Below, in pieces: positions 2,891 through 51,359 of a stretch of 64,000 bases of DNA; the stretch's first letter is position 1, and each line of letters opens with the position of its first letter. Source of the DNA: Giardia intestinalis (Eukaryota); the NCBI GenBank assembly GCA_000002435.2, contig CM018791.1. One strand, written 5' to 3'. The position numbers and the translations under genes are program-made. Under the pieces are notes generated by a model. That model was not told where the DNA came from and searched no databases. It worked only from the letters and a program-made list of their open reading frames with translations.

Positions 2891-2953
2891 TTCTTTTTCC
2901 GCGTCTCCTGCACAAAGCGGTTTCGCGCATCTTGTGGCTCGAGCGGTCCGTGC

Positions 2954-3035
2954 GACAGTTTGGCCGAGTGGTTAAGGCGCTTGCCTGCTAAGCAAGTGTG
3001 CTCCGCACGCGTGGGTTCGAATCCCACAGCTGTCG
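2954..3035 (+). tRNA. tRNA-Ser (anticodon GCT/GCU), class II with long variable arm
   Basis: GACAGTT/AGCTGTC 7-bp acceptor stem. A-box TGGCCGAGTGGTTAAGGCG. Anticodon stem CTTGC/GCAAG with loop CTGCTAA. Variable arm TGTGCTCCGCACGC. B-box GTGGGTTCGAATCCCAC. Near-identical in architecture to eukaryotic tRNA-Ser-GCT. Confidence 0.88.
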
Positions 3036-3037
3036 GT

Positions 3038-31764: not shown

Positions 31765-34145
31765 ACGCTTGACAACCAGTCTTTTTCATTTTAGCAAATA
31801 ATCAGCAGGGATTACGATCTTTCGCCTCTCCTCTGTGACCCTGACCCACTTGTTGAGGGTCCGGCGATTCAGGAACTACCGAGCCTGACTGATCATGTGT
31901 TCTAACATGCTTCTTTCTGCAATTAATGGATCTGCAGCCACTGTCGTGACCACAACACCAGCAGGCCCCGTCCTCTGCACCAGGGGCTTGCGGGCCCCTC
32001 AGGCGCGCCCCTGTGCGGAGAGTTTGAAGCCAACGCAGTGGGTTTGGAGCCCACCTGCTGGCTCGACCGATGCCCGGCCTGCCTGGCCAGCAGGACGCTC
32101 TCCAGACCGGGCCTTGCCCTCCCATGCTTTAAACCCTGAAGGCTTTACTCGCAGACAGCTAGGCGCCGTCTCGCTTTTCTGACGGCCTTTTACATAGCTA
32201 ATAGAGTTGATGCGTGGAACGGTCTTGCGCTAGCGGAGAGCTTGTACTGCTCTTGACAGCGTGCAGAAGAGCCTCTCTGCTATTTTGTTAAGACGTACTT
32301 GCAATAAAGCACCTCCTACTTCTCTCTATTTTAGACCGCACTACTCTTTCTGAGGTTGGGACACAGCCCGCCACGCTCTTTGATGCAAGCCCACTGCAAT
32401 GTCAACCCTACTCCACGTATCCTGAACACCTGATCGAGTCTGTCCTATACTGTGCGTACCAGGCTTCCAAGGCACTAGGCACATAACCACCACTCACCTT
32501 AAGGCTAATTCCATAAAGTGTGGCAGAGCTTTTGCCCATGCCTTCGTCGCAAGACAAGCAGACAGCCGTTCGGCTCTACTCTTAAGCTCTGATCTGATGC
32601 ACACAAGGGGCCATACACTCTGTGCTGCACATCTTGTTGCTACCGGGAGGCAAACTGTTTGCATTAGTCCCTTGCGTAAAAGGTGAAGAGAGGGAACATC
32701 ACTTCTGCAGAGCAACTTTACAATCCATGGCTGCGTTTCTATAATCGACATTCTATCGAAAGAATTGCTGTGAGCATGCTCATGAAGCCATAGAAGGTTG
32801 TTGGAATAGGACTTCTAGCGATAATACTCATGATGTCCCTGTGAACATTCCTATCTGCTGCACTGTCATTGCCATGGTATATTTGCGGATAGATAAGCAA
32901 TTGTGGCAGCCCTAATTTGTTGTTGAGCTACCTCAGTCGCAACTCAAACGTAAAGCAATAGCACGCATCAGCATCTTGCTCGGCGATACCGATCGAAGAT
33001 TGTGCACACAGCCCTTATCTAGTCATTATGCTTAGCTTCTCGATCTTATGAGCTTTCTAATGCACTCTGATTTCTTCTGCCAACTGTCTCGACTTCATCA
33101 TCTGATCTTCTTTGGCTTTATTCATAGAGTTGTCTATTTGTGATGGATATTCATGCAGGATATATCAGCGTACTGCTGCACTCAACAAGAATGCAGGGGT
33201 GTCACTTTTAAAGCAGCCAGCCTCAAGGAGTTTAATGGCAGTCTCTGTTGAAGACATCCAGTATGTGTGCACTACTGGGAGTGATGTATCTCATCACTAA
33301 GGACTTTAGAAGTCATCTACACATTAATGAATAAGCCCCGAAAGAGCGTAGCCTGTAGCTATCTGCAGCCAAATATAGGGCATGTTGATCGCATACACAC
33401 ATCCTTCTCAGCATATCTCACACACAGCCCTTACTTGCATCCAGCCTGATCTTGTCAGTAGGCTGTGCTCTCCTTAACTATAATGAGGCAGCTATACAAA
33501 CTATCTCGATAGCGCCTCATAGAAACTATGCTTTGACGGTATATTCCTCTCTGCGAGTAGGATGTTCTGGATTGTCTGGACTGATGAGGATCGTATTAAG
33601 GTGCAAAGAAGTACAACGATGTGGCTGATTATGTAGAGAAGGTCGAGAGCGATTAGGTGGGTAGCCACTAGGAGAAGCCGGCGACAAGCGAGGCACCCTT
33701 ATATGAGCCGGAGCATTGCAGATTCAGATGTCCATTGTCTGTTCAGATATTGGTGCGCGACTCGCATGGAGCAGACAACATGCCCGCGATGGAGTAGTAG
33801 GAGACGCGTTTACAGCTAAGCGTGAGTCTACGCCTTTTCCAGCAGAGGAAGCCAATAACGTCAGTAGGAGGGGCAGAAAAGATATGACCACAGGCATACT
33901 ATGAGCTCCTCGTACTATGTGTAATGTTTGAGTCTAACTTTGTATTAACTAGCCTTACTCTTATTTAAATCAAGAGATAAATCTATGATATTGGTCGCTT
34001 CCCAGTAGCAATACGCCCCCGATTCTAAGCTTCTTTAATTAACTAAGTTACAGAAAGACGCTGCCAATTTAAGCTCTTCTCATTCATGGACCAATCTATA
34101 CATCTGAGTGAAGAAAGTACCAATTAATTACAGATCCTAACTCCA

Positions 34146-37100
34146 ATGTTACTAGTACTTCTCGCAAGTTGTATAGCTGTACAAGCCGCGGTGTGTGCGC
34201 CCGCGCTGATCGGCGCCGGGTGTGCGACATGCACAGGAGAGAACGACGGACAGACGTGCCTTACGTGTAATCCCCAAGAGAACAAGGTGCAGCCTGGCGG
34301 AAAGAAATGCGGAGTCGGCTGCCCGGCGAACTCCACCCCTAAGGAGAGCGTGTGCGAGTGCAACGGAGGATACAGGCCGAACGCCCAGGGCCAGTGCGAG
34401 CAAGACCCCGCCGCGGTGTGTGCGCCCGCGCTGATCGGCGCCGGGTGTGCGACATGCACAGGAGAGAACGACGGACAGACGTGCCTTACGTGTAATCCCC
34501 AAGAGAACAAGGTGCAGCCTGGCGGAAAGAAATGCGGAGTCGGCTGCCCGGCGAACTCCACCCCTAAGGAGAGCGTGTGCGAGTGCAACGGAGGATACAG
34601 GCCGAACGCCCAGGGCCAGTGCGAGCAAGACCCCGCCGCGGTGTGTGCGCCCGCGCTGATCGGCGCCGGGTGTGCGACATGCACAGGAGAGAACGACGGA
34701 CAGACGTGCCTTACGTGTAATCCCCAAGAGAACAAGGTGCAGCCTGGCGGAAAGAAATGCGGAGTCGGCTGCCCGGCGAACTCCACCCCTAAGGAGAGCG
34801 TGTGCGAGTGCAACGGAGGATACAGGCCGAACGCCCAGGGCCAGTGCGAGCAAGACCCCGCCGCGGTGTGTGCGCCCGCGCTGATCGGCGCCGGGTGTGC
34901 GACATGCACAGGAGAGAACGACGGACAGACGTGCCTTACGTGTAATCCCCAAGAGAACAAGGTGCAGCCTGGCGGAAAGAAATGCGGAGTCGGCTGCCCG
35001 GCGAACTCCACCCCTAAGGAGAGCGTGTGCGAGTGCAACGGAGGATACAGGCCGAACGCCCAGGGCCAGTGCGAGCAAGACCCCGCCGCGGTGTGTGCGC
35101 CCGCGCTGATCGGCGCCGGGTGTGCGACATGCACAGGAGAGAACGACGGACAGACGTGCCTTACGTGTAATCCCCAAGAGAACAAGGTGCAGCCTGGCGG
35201 AAAGAAATGCGGAGTCGGCTGCCCGGCGAACTCCACCCCTAAGGAGAGCGTGTGCGAGTGCAACGGAGGATACAGGCCGAACGCCCAGGGCCAGTGCGAG
35301 CAAGACCCCGCCGCGGTGTGTGCGCCCGCGCTGATCGGCGCCGGGTGTGCGACATGCACAGGAGAGAACGACGGACAGACGTGCCTTACGTGTAATCCCC
35401 AAGAGAACAAGGTGCAGCCTGGCGGAAAGAAATGCGGAGTCGGCTGCCCGGCGAACTCCACCCCTAAGGAGAGCGTGTGCGAGTGCAACGGAGGATACAG
35501 GCCGAACGCCCAGGGCCAGTGCGAGCAAGACCCCGCCGCGGTGTGTGCGCCCGCGCTGATCGGCGCCGGGTGTGCGACATGCACAGGAGAGAACGACGGA
35601 CAGACGTGCCTTACGTGTAATCCCCAAGAGAACAAGGTGCAGCCTGGCGGAAAGAAATGCGGAGTCGGCTGCCCGGCGAACTCCACCCCTAAGGAGAGCG
35701 TGTGCGAGTGCAACGGAGGATACAGGCCGAACGCCCAGGGCCAGTGCGAGCAAGACCCCGCCGCGGTGTGTGCGCCCGCGCTGATCGGCGCCGGGTGTGC
35801 GACATGCACAGGAGAGAACGACGGACAGACGTGCCTTACGTGTAATCCCCAAGAGAACAAGGTGCAGCCTGGCGGAAAGAAATGCGGAGTCGGCTGCCCG
35901 GCGAACTCCACCCCTAAGGAGAGCGTGTGCGAGTGCAACGGAGGATACAGGCCGAACGCCCAGGGCCAGTGCGAGCAAGACCCCGCCGCGGTGTGTGCGC
36001 CCGCGCTGATCGGCGCCGGGTGTGCGACATGCACAGGAGAGAACGACGGACAGACGTGCCTTACGTGTAATCCCCAAGAGAACAAGGTGCAGCCTGGCGG
36101 AAAGAAATGCGGAGTCGGCTGCCCGGCGAACTCCACCCCTAAGGAGAGCGTGTGCGAGTGCAACGGAGGATACAGGCCGAACGCCCAGGGCCAGTGCGAG
36201 CAAGACCCCGCCGCGGTGTGTGCGCCCGCGCTGATCGGCGCCGGGTGTGCGACATGCACAGGAGAGAACGACGGACAGACGTGCCTTACGTGTAATCCCC
36301 AAGAGAACAAGGTGCAGCCTGGCGGAAAGAAATGCGGAGTCGGCTGCCCGGCGAACTCCACCCCTAAGGAGAGCGTGTGCGAGTGCAACGGAGGATACAG
36401 GCCGAACGCCCAGGGCCAGTGCGAGCAAGACCCCGCCGCGGTGTGTGCGCCCGCGCTGATCGGCGCCGGGTGTGCGACATGCACAGGAGAGAACGACGGA
36501 CAGACGTGCCTTACGTGTAATCCCCAAGAGAACAAGGTGCAGCCTGGCGGAAAGAAATGCGGAGTCGGCTGCCCGGCGAACTCCACCCCTAAGGAGAGCG
36601 TGTGCGAGTGCAACGGAGGATACAGGCCGAACGCCCAGGGCCAGTGCGAGCAAGACCCCGCCGCGGTGTGTGCGCCCGCGCTGATCGGCGCCGGGTGTGC
36701 GACATGCACAGGAGAGAACGACGGACAGACGTGCCTTACGTGTAATCCCCAAGAGAACAAGGTGCAGCCTGGCGGAAAGAAATGCGGAGTCGGCTGCCCG
36801 GCGAACTCCACCCCTAAGGAGAGCGTGTGCGAGTGCAACGGAGGATACAGGCCGAACGCCCAGGGCCAGTGCGAGCAAGACCCCGCCGCGGTGTGTGCGC
36901 CCGCGCTGATCGGCGCCGGGTGTGCGACATGCACAGGAGAGAACGACGGACAGACGTGCCTTACGTGTAATCCCCAAGAGAACAAGGTGCAGCCTGGCGG
37001 AAAGAAATGCGGAGTCGGCTGCCCGGCGAACTCCACCCCTAAGGAGAGCGTGTGCGAGTGCAACGGAGGATACAGGCCGAACGCCCAGGGCCAGTGCGAG

Positions 37101-40100
37101 CAAGACCCCGCCGCGGTGTGTGCGCCCGCGCTGATCGGCGCCGGGTGTGCGACATGCACAGGAGAGAACGACGGACAGACGTGCCTTACGTGTAATCCCC
37201 AAGAGAACAAGGTGCAGCCTGGCGGAAAGAAATGCGGAGTCGGCTGCCCGGCGAACTCCACCCCTAAGGAGAGCGTGTGCGAGTGCAACGGAGGATACAG
37301 GCCGAACGCCCAGGGCCAGTGCGAGCAAGACCCCGCCGCGGTGTGTGCGCCCGCGCTGATCGGCGCCGGGTGTGCGACATGCACAGGAGAGAACGACGGA
37401 CAGACGTGCCTTACGTGTAATCCCCAAGAGAACAAGGTGCAGCCTGGCGGAAAGAAATGCGGAGTCGGCTGCCCGGCGAACTCCACCCCTAAGGAGAGCG
37501 TGTGCGAGTGCAACGGAGGATACAGGCCGAACGCCCAGGGCCAGTGCGAGCAAGACCCCGCCGCGGTGTGTGCGCCCGCGCTGATCGGCGCCGGGTGTGC
37601 GACATGCACAGGAGAGAACGACGGACAGACGTGCCTTACGTGTAATCCCCAAGAGAACAAGGTGCAGCCTGGCGGAAAGAAATGCGGAGTCGGCTGCCCG
37701 GCGAACTCCACCCCTAAGGAGAGCGTGTGCGAGTGCAACGGAGGATACAGGCCGAACGCCCAGGGCCAGTGCGAGCAAGACCCCGCCGCGGTGTGTGCGC
37801 CCGCGCTGATCGGCGCCGGGTGTGCGACATGCACAGGAGAGAACGACGGACAGACGTGCCTTACGTGTAATCCCCAAGAGAACAAGGTGCAGCCTGGCGG
37901 AAAGAAATGCGGAGTCGGCTGCCCGGCGAACTCCACCCCTAAGGAGAGCGTGTGCGAGTGCAACGGAGGATACAGGCCGAACGCCCAGGGCCAGTGCGAG
38001 CAAGACCCCGCCGCGGTGTGTGCGCCCGCGCTGATCGGCGCCGGGTGTGCGACATGCACAGGAGAGAACGACGGACAGACGTGCCTTACGTGTAATCCCC
38101 AAGAGAACAAGGTGCAGCCTGGCGGAAAGAAATGCGGAGTCGGCTGCCCGGCGAACTCCACCCCTAAGGAGAGCGTGTGCGAGTGCAACGGAGGATACAG
38201 GCCGAACGCCCAGGGCCAGTGCGAGCAAGACCCCGCCGCGGTGTGTGCGCCCGCGCTGATCGGCGCCGGGTGTGCGACATGCACAGGAGAGAACGACGGA
38301 CAGACGTGCCTTACGTGTAATCCCCAAGAGAACAAGGTGCAGCCTGGCGGAAAGAAATGCGGAGTCGGCTGCCCGGCGAACTCCACCCCTAAGGAGAGCG
38401 TGTGCGAGTGCAACGGAGGATACAGGCCGAACGCCCAGGGCCAGTGCGAGCAAGACCCCGCCGCGGTGTGTGCGCCCGCGCTGATCGGCGCCGGGTGTGC
38501 GACATGCACAGGAGAGAACGACGGACAGACGTGCCTTACGTGTAATCCCCAAGAGAACAAGGTGCAGCCTGGCGGAAAGAAATGCGGAGTCGGCTGCCCG
38601 GCGAACTCCACCCCTAAGGAGAGCGTGTGCGAGTGCAACGGAGGATACAGGCCGAACGCCCAGGGCCAGTGCGAGCAAGACCCCGCCGCGGTGTGTGCGC
38701 CCGCGCTGATCGGCGCCGGGTGTGCGACATGCACAGGAGAGAACGACGGACAGACGTGCCTTACGTGTAATCCCCAAGAGAACAAGGTGCAGCCTGGCGG
38801 AAAGAAATGCGGAGTCGGCTGCCCGGCGAACTCCACCCCTAAGGAGAGCGTGTGCGAGTGCAACGGAGGATACAGGCCGAACGCCCAGGGCCAGTGCGAG
38901 CAAGACCCCGCCGCGGTGTGTGCGCCCGCGCTGATCGGCGCCGGGTGTGCGACATGCACAGGAGAGAACGACGGACAGACGTGCCTTACGTGTAATCCCC
39001 AAGAGAACAAGGTGCAGCCTGGCGGAAAGAAATGCGGAGTCGGCTGCCCGGCGAACTCCACCCCTAAGGAGAGCGTGTGCGAGTGCAACGGAGGATACAG
39101 GCCGAACGCCCAGGGCCAGTGCGAGCAAGACCCCGCCGCGGTGTGTGCGCCCGCGCTGATCGGCGCCGGGTGTGCGACATGCACAGGAGAGAACGACGGA
39201 CAGACGTGCCTTACGTGTAATCCCCAAGAGAACAAGGTGCAGCCTGGCGGAAAGAAATGCGGAGTCGGCTGCCCGGCGAACTCCACCCCTAAGGAGAGCG
39301 TGTGCGAGTGCAACGGAGGATACAGGCCGAACGCCCAGGGCCAGTGCGAGCAAGACCCCGCCGCGGTGTGTGCGCCCGCGCTGATCGGCGCCGGGTGTGC
39401 GACATGCACAGGAGAGAACGACGGACAGACGTGCCTTACGTGTAATCCCCAAGAGAACAAGGTGCAGCCTGGCGGAAAGAAATGCGGAGTCGGCTGCCCG
39501 GCGAACTCCACCCCTAAGGAGAGCGTGTGCGAGTGCAACGGAGGATACAGGCCGAACGCCCAGGGCCAGTGCGAGCAAGACCCCGCCGCGGTGTGTGCGC
39601 CCGCGCTGATCGGCGCCGGGTGTGCGACATGCACAGGAGAGAACGACGGACAGACGTGCCTTACGTGTAATCCCCAAGAGAACAAGGTGCAGCCTGGCGG
39701 AAAGAAATGCGGAGTCGGCTGCCCGGCGAACTCCACCCCTAAGGAGAGCGTGTGCGAGTGCAACGGAGGATACAGGCCGAACGCCCAGGGCCAGTGCGAG
39801 CAAGACCCCGCCGCGGTGTGTGCGCCCGCGCTGATCGGCGCCGGGTGTGCGACATGCACAGGAGAGAACGACGGACAGACGTGCCTTACGTGTAATCCCC
39901 AAGAGAACAAGGTGCAGCCTGGCGGAAAGAAATGCGGAGTCGGCTGCCCGGCGAACTCCACCCCTAAGGAGAGCGTGTGCGAGTGCAACGGAGGATACAG
40001 GCCGAACGCCCAGGGCCAGTGCGAGCAAGACCCCGCCGCGGTGTGTGCGCCCGCGCTGATCGGCGCCGGGTGTGCGACATGCACAGGAGAGAACGACGGA

Positions 40101-40607
40101 CAGACGTGCCTTACGTGTAATCCCCAAGAGAACAAGGTGCAGCCTGGCGGAAAGAAATGCGGAGTCGGCTGCCCGGCGAACTCCACCCCTAAGGAGAGCG
40201 TGTGCGAGTGCAACGGAGGATACAGGCCGAACGCCCAGGGCCAGTGCGAGCAAGACCCCGCCGCGGTGTGTGCGCCCGCGCTGATCGGCGCCGGGTGTGC
40301 GACATGCACAGGAGAGAACGACGGACAGACGTGCCTTACGTGTAATCCCCAAGAGAACAAGGTGCAGCCTGGCGGAAAGAAATGCGGAGTCGGCTGCCCG
40401 GCGAACTCCACCCCTAAGGAGAGCGTGTGCGAGTGCAACGGAGGATACAGGCCGAACGCCCAGGGCCAGTGCGAGCCTTCTAATACTAATAAGAGTAGCG
40501 GTCTTTCTACCGGCGCCATAGCAGGCATCGCTGTGGCTGCTGTCATCGTTGTAGGAGGGCTCGTCGGCTTCCTTTGCTGGTGGTTCATATGTAGGGGGAA
40601 AGCGTAG
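34146..40607 (+). CDS. Variant-specific surface protein (VSP) with ~28 tandem 75-aa Cys-rich repeats (2153 aa)
   Basis: Signal peptide MLLVLLASCIAVQAA. 75-aa unit with 10 Cys (CATC, CLTC, CGVGC, CEC motifs) repeated 27 times plus one 70-aa copy. TM helix and invariant VSP tail ...GFLCWWFICRGKA. Followed by the conserved VSP 3' element ACTTAGGTAGTAAAC. Confidence 0.92.
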   Translation: MLLVLLASCIAVQAAVCAPALIGAGCATCTGENDGQTCLTCNPQENKVQPGGKKCGVGCPANSTPKESVCECNGGYRPNAQGQCEQDPAAVCAPALIGAGCATCTGENDGQTCLTCNPQENKVQPGGKKCGVGCPANSTPKESVCECNGGYRPNAQGQCEQDPAAVCAPALIGAGCATCTGENDGQTCLTCNPQENKVQPGGKKCGVGCPANSTPKESVCECNGGYRPNAQGQCEQDPAAVCAPALIGAGCATCTGENDGQTCLTCNPQENKVQPGGKKCGVGCPANSTPKESVCECNGGYRPNAQGQCEQDPAAVCAPALIGAGCATCTGENDGQTCLTCNPQENKVQPGGKKCGVGCPANSTPKESVCECNGGYRPNAQGQCEQDPAAVCAPALIGAGCATCTGENDGQTCLTCNPQENKVQPGGKKCGVGCPANSTPKESVCECNGGYRPNAQGQCEQDPAAVCAPALIGAGCATCTGENDGQTCLTCNPQENKVQPGGKKCGVGCPANSTPKESVCECNGGYRPNAQGQCEQDPAAVCAPALIGAGCATCTGENDGQTCLTCNPQENKVQPGGKKCGVGCPANSTPKESVCECNGGYRPNAQGQCEQDPAAVCAPALIGAGCATCTGENDGQTCLTCNPQENKVQPGGKKCGVGCPANSTPKESVCECNGGYRPNAQGQCEQDPAAVCAPALIGAGCATCTGENDGQTCLTCNPQENKVQPGGKKCGVGCPANSTPKESVCECNGGYRPNAQGQCEQDPAAVCAPALIGAGCATCTGENDGQTCLTCNPQENKVQPGGKKCGVGCPANSTPKESVCECNGGYRPNAQGQCEQDPAAVCAPALIGAGCATCTGENDGQTCLTCNPQENKVQPGGKKCGVGCPANSTPKESVCECNGGYRPNAQGQCEQDPAAVCAPALIGAGCATCTGENDGQTCLTCNPQENKVQPGGKKCGVGCPANSTPKESVCECNGGYRPNAQGQCEQDPAAVCAPALIGAGCATCTGENDGQTCLTCNPQENKVQPGGKKCGVGCPANSTPKESVCECNGGYRPNAQGQCEQDPAAVCAPALIGAGCATCTGENDGQTCLTCNPQENKVQPGGKKCGVGCPANSTPKESVCECNGGYRPNAQGQCEQDPAAVCAPALIGAGCATCTGENDGQTCLTCNPQENKVQPGGKKCGVGCPANSTPKESVCECNGGYRPNAQGQCEQDPAAVCAPALIGAGCATCTGENDGQTCLTCNPQENKVQPGGKKCGVGCPANSTPKESVCECNGGYRPNAQGQCEQDPAAVCAPALIGAGCATCTGENDGQTCLTCNPQENKVQPGGKKCGVGCPANSTPKESVCECNGGYRPNAQGQCEQDPAAVCAPALIGAGCATCTGENDGQTCLTCNPQENKVQPGGKKCGVGCPANSTPKESVCECNGGYRPNAQGQCEQDPAAVCAPALIGAGCATCTGENDGQTCLTCNPQENKVQPGGKKCGVGCPANSTPKESVCECNGGYRPNAQGQCEQDPAAVCAPALIGAGCATCTGENDGQTCLTCNPQENKVQPGGKKCGVGCPANSTPKESVCECNGGYRPNAQGQCEQDPAAVCAPALIGAGCATCTGENDGQTCLTCNPQENKVQPGGKKCGVGCPANSTPKESVCECNGGYRPNAQGQCEQDPAAVCAPALIGAGCATCTGENDGQTCLTCNPQENKVQPGGKKCGVGCPANSTPKESVCECNGGYRPNAQGQCEQDPAAVCAPALIGAGCATCTGENDGQTCLTCNPQENKVQPGGKKCGVGCPANSTPKESVCECNGGYRPNAQGQCEQDPAAVCAPALIGAGCATCTGENDGQTCLTCNPQENKVQPGGKKCGVGCPANSTPKESVCECNGGYRPNAQGQCEQDPAAVCAPALIGAGCATCTGENDGQTCLTCNPQENKVQPGGKKCGVGCPANSTPKESVCECNGGYRPNAQGQCEQDPAAVCAPALIGAGCATCTGENDGQTCLTCNPQENKVQPGGKKCGVGCPANSTPKESVCECNGGYRPNAQGQCEQDPAAVCAPALIGAGCATCTGENDGQTCLTCNPQENKVQPGGKKCGVGCPANSTPKESVCECNGGYRPNAQGQCEPSNTNKSSGLSTGAIAGIAVAAVIVVGGLVGFLCWWFICRGKA
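34191..40475 (+). repeat. Tandem repeat array, 225-bp unit x ~27.9, 100% identical copies
   Basis: Period 225 from the recurring ORF starts (34222, 34447, ... 40297). Identical translations in all three frames of both strands imply identity at nucleotide level. Confidence 0.92.
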
Positions 40608-40619
40608 ATGTACTTAGGT

Positions 40620-40626
40620 AGTAAAC
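40620..40626 (+). promoter_or_regulatory. Giardia poly(A) signal AGTAAAC within conserved VSP 3' motif
   Basis: tag-atgtACTTAGGTAGTAAAC 13 nt after the stop codon. Confidence 0.7.
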
Positions 40627-41122
40627 GCGTCACTGTATATGGCTCATATAAATGTGCTGCTGGGCTCACTTGAGGACCTGGTCCAGAGATCGTGCGGGTA
40701 ATCATCGCTCCTTCCTGGCCAGTTCAGAGACGAGGGTTGGCTGTGGATGATATAATAGGGATCTCCCTTCACTTGTATACCAGGAGTCTTTTGCGTCCCT
40801 CAGTTGTTCCGCAGAGGTGTGCTCAGTCTGAGTATGCACGTCGGTCCTTTAGGGGTTCAGGCCTTCTTGCAGACTCTCTGCTCTACCGGTGGCGCCTCTC
40901 CTTAGTCTTTCTTCGTGGTGGGTGAAGCTCCGGTCACCATCCTTTTTTAGATGCCCCGTCTGCCAGGGGCTGCCATCGGGCTCTCCGCTGGCTGGGCCCC
41001 TCGGTGTCCGGGCAGCTGTGGTTCTGGGTCAGTGCTCTACAGTCGCGGTCACTAGGTCCCAGTGGGTTCGGATGGTGGGTGAGGAGGGGTTGCTGAGGCG
41101 GTGAGGCTGGTGGGACCGGGGG

Positions 41123-42974
41123 GTGTTCGCATGTGCCTCTGGGGTCAGTGGGTCAGTGAGGTGGTGGCTGTGGTGACTGGGGGCTATCCATCTATGATTC
41201 ACCCCTCTGTGGACTCGTGGTCTGTGAGTGCCTCCACCCAGACAGCACCCCAGGAGCCGGAGAGTGGTGCCAGCCTAGCTGCCCTCCCTCCTCGGTGCCT
41301 CCCAGTGCAGACTCACCGGAGGCCACTACCCTGTCAGCCACCCAAAGGAGCCGTGCACACCGGGACAGAGAGGATGACCAAGGGGGTCAAGCAGCCCTGC
41401 CACGAGGGTGCACAGCAACCAGCATGAGATGTAGGGTCTGCTCGAGCGATGTAGTGGCAGACGACTCCCTCTGACAGCGACCCTGGTGACTGCACTGGTC
41501 TGCTCTCGAGGCTGAGTGACAGTGTGCACAGATGGACATGAGTGCAGGAGGACCGTCCACACACGGACAGACTGTGTGGACCCAGAGAGGACTGGAGTCT
41601 GCTCGGGACACGCTGACTGTGTGCCCATACGAGAGTGCCAGGCAACTACTCAAGCACCGAGAGGCAGGTACAGACACGGGCACTAGAGATCCCCAGCCAG
41701 ACACATTGCTATGCTCATCCACAGGGGCATCAGAGGGCCAGGTGGAGTCACCCTCACAGTTAGGGCCTGATAGGAAGCCAGAGGACTCAAACACTACAGC
41801 AGGCCCAAGGGAGGCACACTCCAGGCAGGTGAGCAGTGGCAGAGCCTTGATAGCTGCCATCCACCCCCATGACACCCAGGCAGGCACCAGACTCCGAAGA
41901 CTCGCTGGCCTCGACTGATGACCCGAGGGGGCAGCAGCCAGAGGAGTGAGGAGGCCTTCGGACACCACAAGAGGCCGGCTGTCCAGCAGGCTATGAGGCA
42001 GACAGGTGGCCTCTGAGCACCATAAGGCACAGGAGCCGACCATCATGAGTGATGCCCGATCACAGAGATGACCACGAGCGCCCTCCACCGCACTCTGGGG
42101 GGCTGTCGATCATCCCACTGCCTCTCATAGCAGACCTCCTTGGGGGCAGTGCAGTGGGTCCCAGCTCATACAGGAGGGTGTGTGCCCCCCTCAGTATAGG
42201 ATGCCCCGACTCTTCCCGAGGGGTCATCAGAGCCACGAGGAGGGGTCAAGGTCCTGGTGGATCACACCGGGAACCCCTCGAATGGGCACAGCAGGTGATG
42301 TTGGGTGACCCTCAGCGTGCTCCTCTCTGCATGGTAGAGCATCCTGAGACCAAGGAAGCTCACCCCTGCCTACGGATGACACACAGCGCTCCACAACGAG
42401 GACCCACCAGGAGCAGCACAGCTGACCACGGGGGCAGTGCAGCCACCCGGTACCCCACCATGCCAGTCTTCTGGGCCATCACACTAGAGGCCTGAGAGAA
42501 CCCCATCCCATCCACAGGGTCATCCACACCCCTGCTGGCCCGAGGTGAACTGCACCCATCGAGGCACTGGACAGGGCATGCTGGGGGCCCAGCAGATCCA
42601 CACAGAGCATCAGCACAGAGCATCAGCGAGTAGCAGGAGAGGCTGCGATGGCCTGCCTCAGCCCTCACGTACCAGCCAGCCAGAGGCAGTACTACCCGAG
42701 ACATGCAGGGGCCAAGGGAGGCGCTCAGTCAGGGGACATGACACAATCGTCGGTGCCTGTGTCTCGGGGAGTGCAACGCAGGCTGGGGATCAGACGCAAC
42801 CACCTTGGCAAACAGAGAGGGGATCACCCACCACCCCACTGGCCCACCAGACCCAGGGGCACATACAAGCACCCCCACCCGGTCCCCCGGTCCCACCAGC
42901 CTCACCGCCTCAGCAACCCCTCCTCACCCACCAGCCGGCCCGCTATGGAACCTACGTGACCGTGACCGTGGGAG
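41123..42974. other. GC-rich (~60-63%), T-depleted spacer of the palindrome; no credible coding capacity
   Basis: T is only ~10-18% on the + strand in sampled 60-nt lines (e.g. 42781-42840 has 6 T). Long ORFs occur in several frames simultaneously, a composition artefact. Arm homology decays gradually into it. Confidence 0.5.
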
Positions 42975-43382
42975 CGCTGACCCAGAACCACAGCTGCCCG
43001 GACACCGAGGGGCCCAGCCAGTGGAGAGCCCGATGGCAGCCCCTGGCAGACGGGGCATCTAAAAAAGGATGGTGACCGGAGCTTCACCCACCACGAAGAA
43101 AGACTAAGGAGAGGCGCCACCGGTAGAGCAGAGAGTCTGCAAGAAGGCCTGAACCCCTAAAGGACCGACGTGCATACTCAGACTGAGCACACCTCTGCGG
43201 AACAACTGAGGGACGCAAAAGACTCCTGGTATACAAGTGAAGGGAGATCCCTATTATATCATCCACAGCCAACCCTCGTCTCTGAACTGGCCAGGAAGGA
43301 GCGATGATTACCCGCACGATCTCTGGACCAGGTCCTCAAGTGAGCCCAGCAGCACATTTATATGAGCCATATACAGTGACGC

Positions 43383-43389
43383 GTTTACT
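43383..43389 (-). promoter_or_regulatory. Poly(A) signal AGTAAAC (minus strand) of short VSP copy
   Basis: Mirror image of the 40620-40626 element. Confidence 0.7.
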
Positions 43390-43401
43390 ACCTAAGTACA
43401 T

Positions 43402-43788
43402 CTACGCTTTCCCCCTACATATGAACCACCAGCAAAGGAAGCCGACGAGCCCTCCTACAACGATGACAGCAGCCACAGCGATGCCTGCTATGGCGCCGGT
43501 AGAAAGACCGCTACTCTTATTAGTATTAGAAGGCTCGCACTGGCCCTGGGCGTTCGGCCTGTATCCTCCGTTGCACTCGCACACGCTCTCCTTAGGGGTG
43601 GAGTTCGCCGGGCAGCCGACTCCGCATTTCTTTCCGCCAGGCTGCACCTTGTTCTCTTGGGGATTACACGTAAGGCACGTCTGTCCGTCGTTCTCTCCTG
43701 TGCATGTCGCACACCCGGCGCCGATCAGCGCGGGCGCACACACCGCGGCTTGTACAGCTATACAACTTGCGAGAAGTACTAGTAACAT
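43402..43788 (-). CDS. Variant-specific surface protein, single-repeat paralogue of the 34146-40607 VSP (128 aa)
   Basis: Same signal peptide, one 70-aa Cys-rich unit, same TM and CRGKA tail. Identical to the long copy apart from repeat number. Confidence 0.88.
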   Translation of the reverse strand: MLLVLLASCIAVQAAVCAPALIGAGCATCTGENDGQTCLTCNPQENKVQPGGKKCGVGCPANSTPKESVCECNGGYRPNAQGQCEPSNTNKSSGLSTGAIAGIAVAAVIVVGGLVGFLCWWFICRGKA

Positions 43789-46175
43789 TGGAGTTAGGAT
43801 CTGTAATTAATTGGTACTTTCTTCACTCAGATGTATAGATTGGTCCATGAATGAGAAGAGCTTAAATTGGCAGCGTCTTTCTGTAACTTAGTTAATTAAA
43901 GAAGCTTAGAATCGGGGGCGTATTGCTACTGGGAAGCGACCAATATCATAGATTTATCTCTTGATTTAAATAAGAGTAAGGCTAGTTAATACAAAGTTAG
44001 ACTCAAACATTACACATAGTACGAGGAGCTCATAGTATGCCTGTGGTCATATCTTTTCTGCCCCTCCTACTGACGTTATTGGCTTCCTCTGCTGGAAAAG
44101 GCGTAGACTCACGCTTAGCTGTAAACGCGTCTCCTACTACTCCATCGCGGGCATGTTGTCTGCTCCATGCGAGTCGCGCACCAATATCTGAACAGACAAT
44201 GGACATCTGAATCTGCAATGCTCCGGCTCATATAAGGGTGCCTCGCTTGTCGCCGGCTTCTCCTAGTGGCTACCCACCTAATCGCTCTCGACCTTCTCTA
44301 CATAATCAGCCACATCGTTGTACTTCTTTGCACCTTAATACGATCCTCATCAGTCCAGACAATCCAGAACATCCTACTCGCAGAGAGGAATATACCGTCA
44401 AAGCATAGTTTCTATGAGGCGCTATCGAGATAGTTTGTATAGCTGCCTCATTATAGTTAAGGAGAGCACAGCCTACTGACAAGATCAGGCTGGATGCAAG
44501 TAAGGGCTGTGTGTGAGATATGCTGAGAAGGATGTGTGTATGCGATCAACATGCCCTATATTTGGCTGCAGATAGCTACAGGCTACGCTCTTTCGGGGCT
44601 TATTCATTAATGTGTAGATGACTTCTAAAGTCCTTAGTGATGAGATACATCACTCCCAGTAGTGCACACATACTGGATGTCTTCAACAGAGACTGCCATT
44701 AAACTCCTTGAGGCTGGCTGCTTTAAAAGTGACACCCCTGCATTCTTGTTGAGTGCAGCAGTACGCTGATATATCCTGCATGAATATCCATCACAAATAG
44801 ACAACTCTATGAATAAAGCCAAAGAAGATCAGATGATGAAGTCGAGACAGTTGGCAGAAGAAATCAGAGTGCATTAGAAAGCTCATAAGATCGAGAAGCT
44901 AAGCATAATGACTAGATAAGGGCTGTGTGCACAATCTTCGATCGGTATCGCCGAGCAAGATGCTGATGCGTGCTATTGCTTTACGTTTGAGTTGCGACTG
45001 AGGTAGCTCAACAACAAATTAGGGCTGCCACAATTGCTTATCTATCCGCAAATATACCATGGCAATGACAGTGCAGCAGATAGGAATGTTCACAGGGACA
45101 TCATGAGTATTATCGCTAGAAGTCCTATTCCAACAACCTTCTATGGCTTCATGAGCATGCTCACAGCAATTCTTTCGATAGAATGTCGATTATAGAAACG
45201 CAGCCATGGATTGTAAAGTTGCTCTGCAGAAGTGATGTTCCCTCTCTTCACCTTTTACGCAAGGGACTAATGCAAACAGTTTGCCTCCCGGTAGCAACAA
45301 GATGTGCAGCACAGAGTGTATGGCCCCTTGTGTGCATCAGATCAGAGCTTAAGAGTAGAGCCGAACGGCTGTCTGCTTGTCTTGCGACGAAGGCATGGGC
45401 AAAAGCTCTGCCACACTTTATGGAATTAGCCTTAAGGTGAGTGGTGGTTATGTGCCTAGTGCCTTGGAAGCCTGGTACGCACAGTATAGGACAGACTCGA
45501 TCAGGTGTTCAGGATACGTGGAGTAGGGTTGACATTGCAGTGGGCTTGCATCAAAGAGCGTGGCGGGCTGTGTCCCAACCTCAGAAAGAGTAGTGCGGTC
45601 TAAAATAGAGAGAAGTAGGAGGTGCTTTATTGCAAGTACGTCTTAACAAAATAGCAGAGAGGCTCTTCTGCACGCTGTCAAGAGCAGTACAAGCTCTCCG
45701 CTAGCGCAAGACCGTTCCACGCATCAACTCTATTAGCTATGTAAAAGGCCGTCAGAAAAGCGAGACGGCGCCTAGCTGTCTGCGAGTAAAGCCTTCAGGG
45801 TTTAAAGCATGGGAGGGCAAGGCCCGGTCTGGAGAGCGTCCTGCTGGCCAGGCAGGCCGGGCATCGGTCGAGCCAGCAGGTGGGCTCCAAACCCACTGCG
45901 TTGGCTTCAAACTCTCCGCACAGGGGCACGCCTGAGGGGCCCGCAAGCCCCTGGTGCAGAGGACGGGGCCTGCTGGTGTTGTGGTCACGACAGTGGCTCT
46001 GGTGTACTCCAGGAGCGGCCACCGCAGGGCTGGTCGGGCCGTGTGAGCAGGGTTCTGCGGAGCCCGAGTAGAGTCTGTTCTGTGTGTATGGCCACTCAGA
46101 GGCAGTGGCCTAACGATATTCATCGACCTACTAACTAGTAAACCCGATAAAGAGCCGGTTGGAATACGCAAATAC

Positions 46176-47228
46176 GTGCATAAGAGCAAAATGTTGTGTT
46201 CAGACCAAAATTTGCATGGTCGAGACCTCGCTTCAGTAACATCCCCTCTGAGACTCGTGGGTGAGGGTGGGAGGCGCCTTGTTTTTCGCAGGAACAAGGA
46301 GCTGATCTTAATCTCCAAGGTCTCTGCAGCCTCCGACGAAAGCTTCGAACAGACCATAGGCGGCCTCTTTCCGCTCTTTCCTTGGAAGCCGAGTCGCATA
46401 ACTGAAAGTTTATCTCAAGAACTTAACGCATTTCCTCTGCAAGTCCGTGCAAAAAGATATGCTGGAACGGCATTTCCCAGACCAAGCCCTGGGGAGACAT
46501 GCCTGAGCTACACCGGAGTGCATGATCTGCTTACTGTGGTATGCATTAAGCCACACTTTCCCAGCAAAGGAGGTTGGATCGAAAGTTTTTCATTACAAAG
46601 GAAAACAGATGCCGGACAGCACTTCTGTGATTGCTTGGCTCGTGGTGCATTTTACAAAGCGTGTGCTAGCAAGGATAGACTTGTCCACTGGCTCAACACG
46701 GCGTATATCTGCGGTCTCAACCACGGTAGCAACCACCTAACCGTTTACGACTTTGCATCTGATGCTTCTGCGCTCTCCTCCAGTGAGACCGATAAACTAT
46801 TTGGCGCAGTAGCTTGTGCATTAACAGGAGGAAACAATAGTGTTTGCATTCAAATCTACAAGTTGATACATATGTTAGAGGCTCTTCAGCGCGTCTCTTC
46901 TTCAACGCACTTACAAAATGTGGTATCGGCAAAAGAATATGCACACTTTTCCAGCAATTATAGAACTCTAAGCCATAGAGCTATCGAGATTGCTATACAG
47001 CTCTACGCCGGTGGAAAGCTTCCACCTTATGACAATCTCCCATACGTGGACAAGCTCGTCTGCATCCTTCTTTTTAAAACTCTTTCCGATGCATCGCTGC
47101 TCTTCTACCTCTCTAAATCTGACGAGAAGGTTCAATGGTATCTAACGGACCTTGCATTGAAGTCTGCCGAAAGAGTTGGAAAATGGGCATTCGCATCAGC
47201 AGCAAACGATAAGCACAGGGAGCAGTAG
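46176..47228 (+). CDS. hypothetical protein (350 aa)
   Basis: First gene outside the right palindrome arm. Complete ORF. Confidence 0.4.
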   Translation: MHKSKMLCSDQNLHGRDLASVTSPLRLVGEGGRRLVFRRNKELILISKVSAASDESFEQTIGGLFPLFPWKPSRITESLSQELNAFPLQVRAKRYAGTAFPRPSPGETCLSYTGVHDLLTVVCIKPHFPSKGGWIESFSLQRKTDAGQHFCDCLARGAFYKACASKDRLVHWLNTAYICGLNHGSNHLTVYDFASDASALSSSETDKLFGAVACALTGGNNSVCIQIYKLIHMLEALQRVSSSTHLQNVVSAKEYAHFSSNYRTLSHRAIEIAIQLYAGGKLPPYDNLPYVDKLVCILLFKTLSDASLLFYLSKSDEKVQWYLTDLALKSAERVGKWAFASAANDKHREQ

Positions 47229-47702
47229 AGCAACCGGAACCGTGTAGGTTTTATTAGGGAACTCCAGACCATACACTTCCGACGTATCGTTTGTGGAAAG
47301 TAAGTATAGGATAGGCCATGTATTCGATATCGTAAAGACCTGGAACGGTCGTAACATAATCCTACTTCTGCGAGCGATTGATGCGACCAAGATTGTGGGT
47401 AAATAATGTGCTATAATATGTTCTGGATTTGCAAATCTATCTGGCCAGTAAAATAGAACCCCGACGGACATGGCAGATGACGAGCCGAGGCACTGTAGGG
47501 AAAGTGTTGTGATGAACCTTCTGATACGGGCTGTCTCTGGTGCTGCAGCGAGTAGGAAGAAGAATAGAGATAACATAACCCAGGTCGATGTGCAAAAGTA
47601 ATTAAGGGCACTGACACCGTTATCGCGGGTAACCTTGATTACCAGAAAGCTATAGAAGAGACTGAGCAACCCAGAGAGAAGGCGGAACAAGAAAAGTGTC
47701 AT
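47196..47702 (-). CDS. hypothetical small membrane protein (168 aa)
   Basis: Several hydrophobic helices (LFLFRLLSGLLSLFYSFLVI, VMLSLFFFLLAAA, ALLLPVLIVCC). Overlaps the 3' end of the previous gene by 33 bp. Confidence 0.3.
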   Translation of the reverse strand: MTLFLFRLLSGLLSLFYSFLVIKVTRDNGVSALNYFCTSTWVMLSLFFFLLAAAPETARIRRFITTLSLQCLGSSSAMSVGVLFYWPDRFANPEHIIAHYLPTILVASIARRSRIMLRPFQVFTISNTWPILYLLSTNDTSEVYGLEFPNKTYTVPVALLLPVLIVCC

Positions 47703-47707
47703 CTATT

Positions 47708-49057
47708 TTACTTTTTCACCCCCATCCCACTTGTGCTCAGGAAGCGCTGAAGCGCCTCTCGAAGCTCACGATTTTCCCGCTCAAGAAGAACGCTTTCTCT
47801 TTCGAGGGCCAATCGGTCAATACTTACTCTGCTCAACTTCTTATAGATTGAGCGAAGCTCGCCCACGGCCACCATCGCATCCTTTCCCAGAAAATTATCC
47901 CCTACATTTAGGTAAGATGTGGTCACCATCTCGTCGTGTTTGCACTCGTCGTTTATGTGCCTATTCGTCTCATCATCTATTCTATCTACTTCGTTCACCC
48001 GCTCAGCCTCTGTTTCTAGTCGTGTGCACAGTGTCGATACTCTTATGATTTTATTAGCGCTCTCCTTGAGTGATATGATTCGGTCCTCTGCCTCGTGTGC
48101 AGCCAGAACTAGAGCTTTCATCCGTCCTGTCTCAGAGTTGCGATAGGCGGTCAACTTCTTTTTAAGCTCTACAAACTCCAGGTAGGTGGCCTCTTTCTCC
48201 TTTTTGAGAAGGGCATTCTTGGCTCTAAACTCCTCTGTTGTGGTTTGGATCTTGGCTCTCCAGTGCGCAATCGCCTTGGACAATCTCTCAATTTTCTGCT
48301 TCTGCCTCTCGATCGCCAAGGAAGACTGTTGATCCTTCAATAAAAGAACCTTAAACTGGTGTTGCTTGGTGTCCGTGTTTGCGCGATACTTTTCGTGGGC
48401 GTCGAGGAGGTGCCGTTCCAAATCAGCGTTTATTTCTTCAAGATTTAAACGCAGAACATTGCATGTTTCTTGGCTCTGATTCTTTAATTCTGATATCTTG
48501 CTGGAGTATGAGGAGTTCAGTTGCTGAATAAGTTGGTCTTCTTGCTCTTGAGTGGAGCTTTTGATTTCTTGAAGCAGGCGCTCTCGTGCGTCATAGCTTT
48601 TCTTGAGAGCTGCTATTTCTTGGTCAAACTGCGCCTGGAGCCTGGTGATATTATCTTCCAGGGATTCTTCAAATAGAGCACTTCGCTCCTGGAGCAGCGC
48701 AAGGATGCCGTCCATGGTTGAAAGATGTGTCCTGATGCACCGTCGACGTTGTTCTTCCGCAATAGATATGTATCTAGATAAAAGTGTGATAAACGCGTCC
48801 TTCCTATCTACTTGATGGTCAAAGTCTTGAATCAATGACTCTATTTGCTTGATAAGCTCGGTCTTCTTAACCGATCGGAGGCGGTCGCGCCAGATAGACT
48901 GGATTTTGGCCCTATTTACAGCGCATATCCCCGCTTCTGCTTGGACCATATTTGTTATTGCGGTAGCGTACTTTGCATGTATCTCATTTCTTCGCTCATC
49001 CTGAAGCTGTCGCTGGAGCTCTAGCTGGGCTGCAGGGTCCAGTCCTGCATCAAACAT
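47708..49057 (-). CDS. Coiled-coil flagellar protein, CCDC65/DRC2-like (449 aa)
   Basis: AKIQSIWRDRLRSVKKTELIKQIESLIQDFDHQVDRKDAFITLLSRYISIAEEQ parallels the conserved N-terminal block of nexin-dynein regulatory complex subunit 2, as recalled from memory. Remainder is heptad coiled coil. Confidence 0.4.
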   Translation of the reverse strand: MFDAGLDPAAQLELQRQLQDERRNEIHAKYATAITNMVQAEAGICAVNRAKIQSIWRDRLRSVKKTELIKQIESLIQDFDHQVDRKDAFITLLSRYISIAEEQRRRCIRTHLSTMDGILALLQERSALFEESLEDNITRLQAQFDQEIAALKKSYDARERLLQEIKSSTQEQEDQLIQQLNSSYSSKISELKNQSQETCNVLRLNLEEINADLERHLLDAHEKYRANTDTKQHQFKVLLLKDQQSSLAIERQKQKIERLSKAIAHWRAKIQTTTEEFRAKNALLKKEKEATYLEFVELKKKLTAYRNSETGRMKALVLAAHEAEDRIISLKESANKIIRVSTLCTRLETEAERVNEVDRIDDETNRHINDECKHDEMVTTSYLNVGDNFLGKDAMVAVGELRSIYKKLSRVSIDRLALERESVLLERENRELREALQRFLSTSGMGVKK

Positions 49058-49228
49058 TTTTTGGGACCGTTTTTTGTTCTCACGACTTTCACTATCCTAT
49101 ACTCTGTTAATAAGACTGATTCGTTGACGAGAAAAGTTGGCTACTCTCTTGCCCTGCTCTCTCCAGAAGATGCAGCAATCTTAGAGGCCGCAGCAAGAGT
49201 CAGCAGTGTCAAGCGTGCAGTTAATGAC

Positions 49229-51337: not shown

Positions 51338-51359
51338 ACTGCCTTTGAACAACACAAGA

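Follow-up and report, generated by a model that had tools for sequence, protein, structure and literature searches.

Introduction

Pairs of VSP genes that face each other tail to tail at a distance of 2.4-3.2 kb have been known in Giardia since 1991, and 12-13 of them are listed for WB. The first inverted VSP pair to be described was vsp1267, and more have been reported since (Adam, 2010; Xu, 2020; Rodriguez-Walker, 2022). Adam 2010 (PMC2996952) found 10 identical tail-to-tail pairs lying 2393-3222 bp apart, with flanks that remain identical until 318-559 nt past the stop codon, and called the inverted pairs 'interesting, but cryptic'. Xu 2020 (PMC7000408) counted 12 pairs at distances of 2526-2813 bp, and 13 pairs are given in 10.1101/2022.03.07.483299, where the intergenic regions form 'very similar' groups. 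Among the 40 VSPs that stand in pairs, 7 of the 20 pairs are arranged head-to-head. One published statement describes the duplicated VSPs as being without repeats.

Members of the VSP class are recognized by a signal peptide, CXXC motifs, the sequence PyAATGTT at the start codon, and an extended poly(A) signal, ACTYAGRTAGTRAAY, directly after the stop codon. This 17-nt signal is invariant across all 136 VSPs and lies a few nucleotides past the stop. The basis of single-VSP expression in Giardia is disputed, with RNAi, microRNA, and chromatin models having been put forward. Repeats similar to those of VSPs are also known as the Girep RNAs (Chen 2009, PMC2817412), which are transcripts of tandem 222-228-nt repeats resembling VSP repeat units; both strands are transcribed, a few small-RNA reads belong to them, and small RNAs from VSPs were reported in the same study as aggregate counts only.

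Here we describe a convergent VSP pair for which an earlier note, made from the DNA alone, had suggested a role as a built-in source of dsRNA. The window, that is, the whole stretch of DNA analyzed, comprises 64,000 nt of contig CM018791.1 (GenBank assembly GCA_000002435.2).

Results

A convergent VSP pair with unequal repeat numbers

The source of the window is Giardia intestinalis WB, and the two genes of the pair are GL50803_0050290 (gene 1) and GL50803_00102178 (gene 2) (Table 1). They had been presented as identical VSP genes that converge across ~2.8 kb and end in mirrored poly(A) signals. Most of this description agrees with our analysis: the two ORFs are convergent, the interval from stop codon to stop codon (40608-43401) measures 2794 nt, and the AGTAAAC at 40620-40626 (+) has its counterpart at 43383-43389 (-). 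The genes are not identical, however, with 28 repeat units and 2153 aa in gene 1 vs. one unit and 128 aa in gene 2.

The product of gene 1 consists of a signal peptide, the 28 repeat units with two CXXC motifs each, a transmembrane domain, and a CRGKA tail. All 27 full copies of the unit proved identical in a unit-by-unit comparison; the count of 28 copies is that of the long-read reference only. Gene 2 differs from gene 1 in carrying just one repeat unit; apart from the 27 additional units of 225 bp, the ORFs are identical. Its 128-aa product matches a WB protein at 100%, and scores 67.6 bits against the Pfam VSP family PF03302 (cut-off of 31.4). The start context of both genes is CAATGTT, in agreement with the VSP initiator PyAATGTT, and in both the C-terminal transmembrane domain of the class leads into CRGKA and the stop codon, located at 40590 (+) in gene 1 and at 43419 (-) in gene 2. 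The extended poly(A) signal ACTTAGGTAGTAAAC begins 5 nt past the stop codon. In the supplement of 10.1101/2022.03.07.483299, both genes are listed as VSPs with a signal peptide, and the expression table gives a low sense transcript level for GL50803_00102178 (0-18 TPM, unique reads).

Table 1. Features of the convergent VSP locus, in coordinates of the window
Feature	Position	Strand	Remarks
Left arm, outer part, upstream of gene 1	31936..34145	+	inverted copy at 43789-45998
Gene 1, VSP of 2153 aa, GL50803_0050290	34146..40607	+	ORF; ID from the 2022 bioRxiv paper supplement
Tandem array, 28.0 copies of a 225-bp (75-aa) unit	34185..40476	+	Tandem Repeats Finder
Left arm, inner part, 3' flank of gene 1	40608..41037		mirrored at 42972-43401
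Extended VSP poly(A) signal ACTTAGGTAGTAAAC, gene 1	40612..40626	+	hexamer AGTAAA from 40620
A/T island and small hairpin CCTTTTTTAGATGCCCCGTCTGCCAGGGGCTGCC	40941..40974		mirror at 43035-43068
Spacer core, non-coding	41038..42971		1.9 kb; asymmetric part about 41171-42824
Right arm, inner part, 3' flank of gene 2	42972..43401		mirror of left inner part
AGTGAA hexamer	43236..43241	+	mirror at 40768-40773 (-)
Extended VSP poly(A) signal, gene 2	43383..43397	-	mirror of 40612-40626
Gene 2, VSP of 128 aa, GL50803_00102178 (vsp156 of Adam 2010)	43402..43788	-	ORF
Right arm, outer part, 2.2 kb upstream of gene 2	43789..45998	-	inverted repeat

An inverted duplication larger than the genes

The inverted repeat is far larger than the genes and extends over 31936-41037 in the left arm and 42972-45998 in the right arm. 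After removal of the 27 extra units, the arms agree at 3024 of 3027 bases, the three mismatches being located at 32006 vs. 45928, at 40987 vs. 43022 (G/A), and at 41033 vs. 42976 (T/C). The outer block (31936-34401/43533-45998) contains a single mismatch, in the 2.2-kb upstream part. On the inner side, the 3' flanks are near-perfect copies to 430 nt, with identity falling to 88% up to ~515 nt and to 83% up to ~560 nt, so that a weaker mirror symmetry extends inward to about 41170/42825. The inclusion of the 2.2 kb upstream of each gene in the inverted repeat had been overlooked in the earlier note. We consider it probable that the locus represents an old inverted duplication of the tail-to-tail VSP pair type known from Giardia.

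Inverted VSP pairs were formerly suspected to be assembly artefacts, and the mirror structure or the difference of 28 vs. one unit could in principle stem from a long read that was a palindromic chimera, or from collapse or inflation of the array. To this could be added that the identity of all units may stem from polishing, and that one short-read contig (L004) crosses a single unit unbroken. In independent short-read assemblies, 23 contigs were inspected per flanking gene. Of the contigs aligned, eight came from the right flank and two from the left, and they match the window at 99.99-100%. The eight right-flank contigs run independently from the flank through the right arm (six of them at 100% identity), and seven end exactly 30 nt into the repeat unit, as expected if the reads hold a unit-to-unit junction. 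The left-flank contigs end at 31965, 30 nt inside the arm. Both outer junctions are thus seen again in many independent assemblies, which indicates that the duplication is not an artefact of one assembly. Likewise, a fold-back read would not give the asymmetric core of 1.9 kb, a one-unit gene is conserved in DH, the A2 metagenome, and P15 (127-128 aa), and the curated reference annotation includes both genes. For the duplication an artefact is largely refuted by these results, and for the structure as a whole we regard it as highly improbable. The same Logan short-read contigs were considered as evidence of transcripts and rejected, since their ends fit assembler behavior at repeats.

Age and uniformity of the arms

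Comparison with other lineages argues for an old duplication. A contig of the A2-type metagenome (L002) covers exactly one arm, including a complete one-unit VSP, with no fork at the unit borders. In assemblage E, the terminal 33 nt of a right-flank contig (L016) are the reverse complement of positions 6401-6433 of the P15 contig L003, where the left arm boundary lies. The outer duplication boundary is thus common to WB and assemblage E; the partner arm in A2 and E is judged from contig ends and the 33-nt overlap, both copies being joined on one contig only in WB. WB and A2 share 95% identity in the upstream stretch and 82-84% towards the 3' side, and WB and P15 are 72-76% identical, while the two WB arms are 99.9% identical to each other. 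The difference of 0.1% between the arms, compared to 5-18% between WB and A2, together with the boundary shared with E, suggests an old duplication that has probably been homogenized. On these sequence comparisons, the duplication would have arisen before assemblages A and E separated, and the uniformity of the arms most likely results from gene conversion. The 28-unit array looks specific to WB/A1. In DH, one contig (L001) joins the left flank, arm, and spacer core in the reverse of the WB orientation, followed by a reverse-transcriptase gene; either the assembly path crossed a collapsed inverted repeat here, or the structure of DH truly differs.

A 3.0-kb segment, composed of 2.2 kb of upstream sequence, a small VSP gene, and a 3' flank of ~430 nt, thus occurs twice, as mirror images on either side of the core. 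In the proposed course of events, arm-to-arm recombination (gene conversion) would hold the arms almost identical. In the left copy, the 225-bp unit may have grown to 28 copies in the WB/A1 lineage by unequal exchange or slippage, and the right copy would retain the one-unit form of other lineages. Having its own initiator-type start and a strong VSP poly(A) signal, each gene is predicted to give a separate mRNA, with the ends of the two mRNAs ~2.7 kb apart, and a dedicated dsRNA function would not be required.

A spacer family adjoining VSP 3' ends

The spacer core has a GC content of 57-69% in 100-nt windows (62-64% per kb), and it belongs to a dispersed repeat family that adjoins VSP 3' ends, with paralogues of 86-90% nucleotide identity. 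Spacers at this level of identity adjoin other VSP genes in the A2-type metagenome. In contig L014, a spacer identical at 90% over 1.0 kb lies next to a different VSP of 506 aa; in L015, the identity is 86% over 2.2 kb, and the spacer adjoins another VSP 3' end and carries short inverted ends, without a partner VSP. The inner left arm, in turn, shows a similarity of ~75-80% with the 3' flanks of the other VSP genes in L014 and L015. Exact 18-20-mers of the 3' flank of the present pair gave no match in the supplement sequences searched.

A coding function of the spacer was rejected. Its ORFs have no Pfam match, and a long ORF that is open in the paralogues evolves neutrally: substitutions are spread evenly over the codon positions, pN/pS is 0.7-0.8, and frameshifting indels occur. 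An origin as a VSP pseudogene was also discarded, because tblastn found no significant similarity to 120 VSP-family proteins. The arms and spacer gave no Rfam match at E<=1. The similarity of the spacers of VSP pairs in sequence and length leaves room for a function.

Read-through transcription and silencing RNA

It had further been claimed that any transcript passing one poly(A) site would be antisense to the partner gene. The sequence premise of this claim holds: RNA running past the poly(A) site and over the spacer would be a perfect antisense of the partner. Positions 40260-41037 are complementary to 42972-43749 over a contiguous 778 nt, far above chance, comprising the final 348 nt of coding sequence and 430 nt of 3' flank. 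The two differences in the 3' flanks are compatible with G·U pairing. A modelled read-through RNA folds in silico into a 778-bp hairpin in which 778/778 arm bases are paired with their mirror partners (-2039 kcal/mol). Polymerases that ignored the poly(A) signal and crossed the spacer could thus provide a hairpin, or an RNA paired with that of the partner gene, which after cutting by Dicer would silence this VSP and perhaps others with the same unit or conserved 3' end. Beyond the signals of the genes themselves, the only other AGTRAA on the + strand path is the AGTGAA at 43236, 166 nt ahead of the partner's stop. This hexamer was considered as a conserved back-stop poly(A) signal and rejected, being at chance density and not conserved in DH, L014, or L015.

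Published data can be cited on both sides. Dicer, Argonaute, and RNA-dependent RNA polymerase are present in Giardia and have been tied to VSP control; antisense reads of VSPs are abundant; and 81% of the gene pairs lying tail-to-tail in WB have overlapping transcripts (Franzen 2013), but those overlaps involve genes far closer than 2.8 kb. Spacer length and sequence are conserved among VSP pairs, but L015 has a like spacer without a partner VSP. All 136 VSPs carry the extended poly(A) signal without variation, which we take to mean that 3' end formation is efficient. In strand-specific RNA-seq, antisense reads outnumbered sense reads for 80-88% of the 136 VSPs, whether paired or unpaired, yet just 26 of the 136 stand in tail-to-tail pairs, and read-through in the seven head-to-head pairs cannot yield antisense RNA of the coding region. 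At the level given for the short gene in the expression table, there would be little transcription to read through. Gene conversion between the arms would leave perfect complementarity as a by-product, as expected for inverted repeats in any case, and in the published RNAi model an RNA-dependent RNA polymerase produces VSP dsRNA from a mixture of VSP mRNAs, and convergent transcription is not the source.

On balance, silencing by read-through RNA appears unlikely. A stronger form, in which the tail-to-tail module, made up of the mirrored VSP copies and a conserved spacer family of 2.5-2.8 kb, is an encoded hairpin-RNA locus, with a self-pairing precursor from occasional read-through and Dicer products that would act on other VSPs by way of the repeat unit and the conserved 3' end, has in our estimate a slightly smaller chance still; if it were true, the asymmetry of long and short genes would amplify one arm 28-fold as a source or target of such RNAs. 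The literature found on VSP pairs neither proposes nor tests a read-through hairpin. The VSP-pair layout is already known in Giardia, nothing found shows that a silencing RNA is made by it, and the reading of the locus as a dsRNA source is open but unsupported.

The widespread antisense excess could also have its origin in the conserved 3' flank or spacer itself, if the A/T island acted as a weak initiator in GC-rich DNA. Transcription in Giardia starts at short AT-rich elements and often runs in both directions (PMC3792122). The island is conserved in 3' flanks belonging to different VSP genes, it is among only three A/T runs of at least 6 nt per flank, with none in the core, and such a model would also serve unpaired VSPs with the same flank, for example in L015. 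However, its run of 7 A/T bases is below the published consensus of 9-11 nt, and the A/T-run density of the 40608-43401 interval equals the window average. We consider initiation at the island quite improbable, more so than either route through a hairpin. Transcripts starting there would enter the adjacent VSP in antisense orientation or traverse the spacer.

Comparison with known systems

The hpRNA genes of Drosophila and the inverted-repeat and convergent-unit loci of Trypanosoma brucei are sources of siRNA. As in those loci, a long near-perfect inverted repeat is present here, which would be a potential Dicer substrate if transcribed across. The known loci are defined by observed precursors and small RNAs, whereas the VSP pair is read from its sequence, and in contrast to them each arm ends in a strong poly(A) signal that faces the spacer. 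If the VSP pairs did act as hairpin-RNA sources, they would offer a concrete and testable origin for the silencing trigger. The Gireps share with the array a VSP-type unit, that of Girep-5 being also 225 nt long; unlike the Gireps, the array clearly forms the repeat of a VSP coding sequence. Identity of the array with Girep-5 itself, for which sense and antisense RT-PCR has been published, is not supported, since nothing next to the array corresponds to the genes (IFT complex B, P23-like) reported 7-10 kb from Girep-5 on scaffold CH991763.

Gene conversion keeps the arms uniform in the ampliconic palindromes of the human Y chromosome and in the plastid inverted repeat. The present locus resembles such large palindromes in that a unique spacer separates arms of kilobase size with 99.9% identity, and in that the boundary of the arm is conserved across lineages diverged by 5-28% in orthologous sequence. 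It differs from them in its scale of 3 kb, in having one gene per arm, and in a tandem array that differs between the arms.

A close match is provided by the WB tail-to-tail pairs. Here as there, convergent VSPs (2794 nt apart) have no gene between them, the flanks diverge at a point (430 nt past the stop) within the published range of 318-559 nt, and the spacer is related to spacers near other VSP genes. Unlike in those pairs, the ORFs are non-identical, and the duplicated upstream part reaches 2.2 kb compared to a flank identity of 139-729 nt in the pairs of Adam 2010. The present pair is missing from the published lists because its ORF lengths differ. What is added here is an unlisted pair with a 28-fold difference between the arms in repeat number; a duplication that would predate the A/E split and is still 99.9% identical in WB, pointing to ongoing gene conversion; and a repeat family, formed by spacer and 3' flank, that is tied to VSP genes. 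These results are of use for annotation and for picking unique probes, and they involve no novel mechanism. The combination of a long and a short form also recalls vspA6 (CRP170) and vspA6-S1, which are nearly identical except that the long form has ~23 units and the short form about one. The repeat of vspA6 measures 195 bp compared to 225 bp here, and, unlike the A6 genes, which are members of linear arrays in Adam 2010, the long and short forms of this locus are the arms of one palindrome.

Structure of the inverted VSP locus

The earlier note described two identical genes for variant-specific surface proteins (VSPs) converging on a spacer of about 2.8 kb. The genes do converge, with their ORFs meeting over 40608-43401 (2794 nt), and AGTAAAC lies exactly at the two positions claimed. 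The structure is real but was partly misdescribed, since the two genes differ: gene 1 carries 28 repeat units, whereas gene 2 is gene 1 with one unit. Both show every VSP hallmark; each starts in the initiator context CAATGTT, ends in CRGKA followed by the stop codon, and has the extended poly(A) signal. All 27 full units of gene 1 are identical to one another. The short protein scores 67.6 bits against the Pfam VSP model (cut-off 31.4) and is 100% identical to a Giardia intestinalis WB VSP. Gene 2 is GL50803_00102178 (vsp156), entered as a singleton in Adam 2010 (PMC2996952), and gene 1 is GL50803_0050290, which the 2020 annotation added; both genes lie on NC_051858.1. The antisense strand of each gene is one open frame (gene 1, 34124-40705 (-), 2193 aa; gene 2, 43304-43810 (+), 168 aa), its ATG lying 98 nt past the VSP stop codon. 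The DH, A2 and P15 orthologues also have open antisense frames (123-131 aa). Antisense frames of this kind are probably a side effect of GC-rich codon usage.

Features of the inverted VSP locus
Feature	Position	Remark
Left arm	31936-41037	Inverted repeat relative to right arm
Right arm	42972-45998	Inverted repeat relative to left arm
Gene 1	34146-40607 (+)	VSP ORF, 2153 aa
225-bp repeat array	34185-40476	Gene 1; 28.0 copies, as in the reference assembly
Gene 2	43402-43788 (-)	VSP ORF, 128 aa
Extended VSP poly(A) signal ACTTAGGTAGTAAAC	5 nt past each stop codon	Both genes
AGTAAAC within the signal	40620-40626 (+); 43383-43389 (-)	
A/T island and small hairpin CCTTTTTTAGATGCCCCGTCTGCCAGGGGCTGCC	40941-40974; mirror 43035-43068	In otherwise GC-rich VSP 3' flank
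Short tandem repeat CACAGAGCATCAG, 2.1 copies	42601-42627	Spacer core

The inverted repeat extends far past the VSP genes themselves, each arm taking in the VSP gene with 2.2 kb of DNA upstream and 430 nt of flank on its 3' side. With 27 units taken out, the arms agree at 3024 of 3027 positions, differing at 32006, 40987 and 41033. Inward of the arms, the mirror symmetry weakens to 83-88% and persists as far as about 41170/42825, which leaves an asymmetric core of ~1.65 kb with a GC content of 62-64%, compared to 45-50% in the surrounding genome. Both outer arm junctions recur in short-read assemblies of many independent runs. The right-flank contigs are 99.99-100% identical through the arm, and seven of eight end 30 nt into a repeat unit, as expected if the reads hold unit-to-unit junctions; the left-flank contigs end exactly 30 nt (k-1) inside the arm. 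One right-flank contig, L004 (Logan, SRR10662869), aligned to 43461-59057, runs from the flank through arm, leader, single unit and 3' part unbroken at the unit borders, for which assembler order, an RNA-seq run or an array-free subline are candidate causes.

Age and maintenance of the duplication

The syntenic left flank is joined to a one-unit VSP in both DH (assemblage A2, contig L001; 127 aa) and P15 (assemblage E, contig L003; 128 aa). Contig L002 (k=141), from the A2-type metagenome, begins no more than 20 nt from the outer arm boundary of WB, stops some 110 nt short of the inner one and holds a complete, unbroken one-unit VSP gene; it is exactly one collapsed arm. The right-flank gene also lies on an E-type short-read contig (L016), whose last 33 nt match P15 L003 6401-6433 in reverse complement; that P15 site is the left arm boundary, no more than about 30 nt from where it lies in WB. 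All of this points, indirectly, to the same inverted duplication in A2 and E. Within WB, arm differs from arm by 0.1%, whereas WB and A2 arms are 95% identical upstream and 82-84% in the 3' part, and WB and P15 arms 72-76%. Together with the signs of the duplication in A2 and E, this far larger divergence between lineages is most simply read as an old duplication whose arms would be continually homogenised by gene conversion, a process that also homogenises the arms of other large palindromes. DH, the A2 metagenome and P15 all have one unit, and L002 shows no fork at the unit borders; both points indicate that the array of 28 units arose by expansion in the WB/A1 lineage. The best-supported account is an old inverted duplication kept up by gene conversion, together with lineage-specific repeat expansion.

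Two contigs show other arrangements. In P15 L003, everything from the VSP stop codon to the end of the contig (330 nt, 9126-9455) is an exact reverse complement of 8104-8433, which lies 314-643 nt upstream of that gene; this reflects either a different palindrome layout or a contig-end artefact. In DH L001 (10875-15123), relative to the left flank, the spacer core runs the other way round from WB and extends only as far as WB position 41562; a 68%-similar, arm-like stretch in direct orientation comes next, then a 628-aa reverse-transcriptase gene (RVT_1). The DH order may come from an assembly path across the collapsed inverted repeat or reflect a true structural difference.

The spacer and VSP 3' flank

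The spacer had no match in Rfam and no significant similarity to VSP proteins, and its ORFs had no Pfam match. The longest spacer ORF matched eight predicted proteins at ~60% amino-acid identity. At the nucleotide level we compared two spacer copies from an A2-type metagenome sample: L014 holds 1.0 kb of core at 90% identity adjoining a different VSP of 506 aa, and L015 holds 2.2 kb at 86% adjoining the 3' end of another VSP. Substitutions fall evenly over codon positions (20/18/19 and 15/14/19), pN/pS is 0.7-0.8 and frame-shifting indels are present, which indicates that the spacer DNA is non-coding. An ORF of 233-266 aa is open in three copies (41387-42088 (-); L014 774-1478; L015 1703-2503). 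It evolves neutrally, an example of GC-rich non-coding Giardia DNA giving rise to long spurious ORFs that gene callers annotate.

The 3' flank in the inner arm is ~75-80% similar among the different VSP genes of this locus, L014 and L015. Since spacer and 3' flank are common to different VSP genes, they appear to form a dispersed module associated with the 3' ends of VSP genes, in agreement with the remark on similar intergenic regions in a 2022 preprint (bioRxiv 10.1101/2022.03.07.483299). The A/T island with its hairpin recurs in conserved form next to the different VSP genes of DH L001, L014 and L015, and may be an initiator-like element. The L015 spacer ends in short inverted segments of about 370 nt (534-896 / 2584-2951; 77-100% identical), with a VSP on one side only and unrelated genes but no partner VSP on the other; it may be a relic of a VSP pair or a state preceding arm expansion.

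Read-through transcription as a possible source of dsRNA

The earlier note had proposed that read-through across the spacer could make this VSP pair a source of dsRNA. The geometry allows it: in a modelled plus-strand RNA running from 40260 through a shortened core to 43749, 778 of 778 arm bases paired with their mirror partners (-2039 kcal/mol). A single read-through transcript would itself be a hairpin, a sharper picture than the two transcripts first envisaged. The path holds one further AGTRAA hexamer only, AGTGAA at 43236 (mirror at 40773), which is at chance density and not conserved in related flanks. However, we consider this source unlikely. An identical invariant 17-nt poly(A) element has been reported in 136 of 136 VSPs, from which we infer efficient 3' end formation, and the 81% transcript overlap of tail-to-tail genes (Franzen 2013) concerns genes separated by the very short intergenic spacers usual in Giardia. 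According to published data, antisense reads equal or exceed sense reads, or reads are absent altogether, for 80-88% of VSPs, whereas tail-to-tail pairs hold only 26 of 136 VSPs and 7 of 20 VSP pairs are head-to-head. In the published model, VSP dsRNA is made by an RNA-dependent RNA polymerase on mixed VSP mRNAs. Transcripts of gene 2 are also scarce (0-18 TPM with unique reads; 13-61 TPM when multi-mapping reads are shared). In the papers on VSP pairs and VSP control covered here we found no proposal or test of read-through between paired VSPs. As a lead, antisense VSP RNA might instead start at the conserved A/T island of the shared 3' flank, Giardia start sites being short AT-rich elements (PMC3792122).

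Comparison with known inverted VSP pairs

Inverted VSP pairs are well established in the WB genome; the first was vsp1267, in which about 3 kb separates a tail-to-tail pair of identical ORFs. Adam 2010 (PMC2996952) listed 10 tail-to-tail and four head-to-head identical pairs, with ORFs 2190-3847 bp apart (tail-to-tail, 2393-3222) and flank identity reaching 318-559 nt past the stop codon, and called them 'an interesting, but cryptic observation'. A long-read assembly (Xu 2020, PMC7000408) gave 12 tail-to-tail pairs 2526-2813 bp apart, and the 2022 preprint gave 13, with intergenic regions in 'very similar' sequence groups and no duplicated VSPs with repeats. The present pair matches these: it is tail to tail with 2794 nt between the ORFs, its flanks diverge at 430 nt, and no gene lies in between. 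It differs solely in that its ORFs are not identical; since identical ORFs define the published pairs, it is missing from all three lists. A long/short precedent is vspA6 and vspA6-S1, with about 23 and about one unit. The locus is a new, asymmetric member of the well-known class of inverted VSP pairs.
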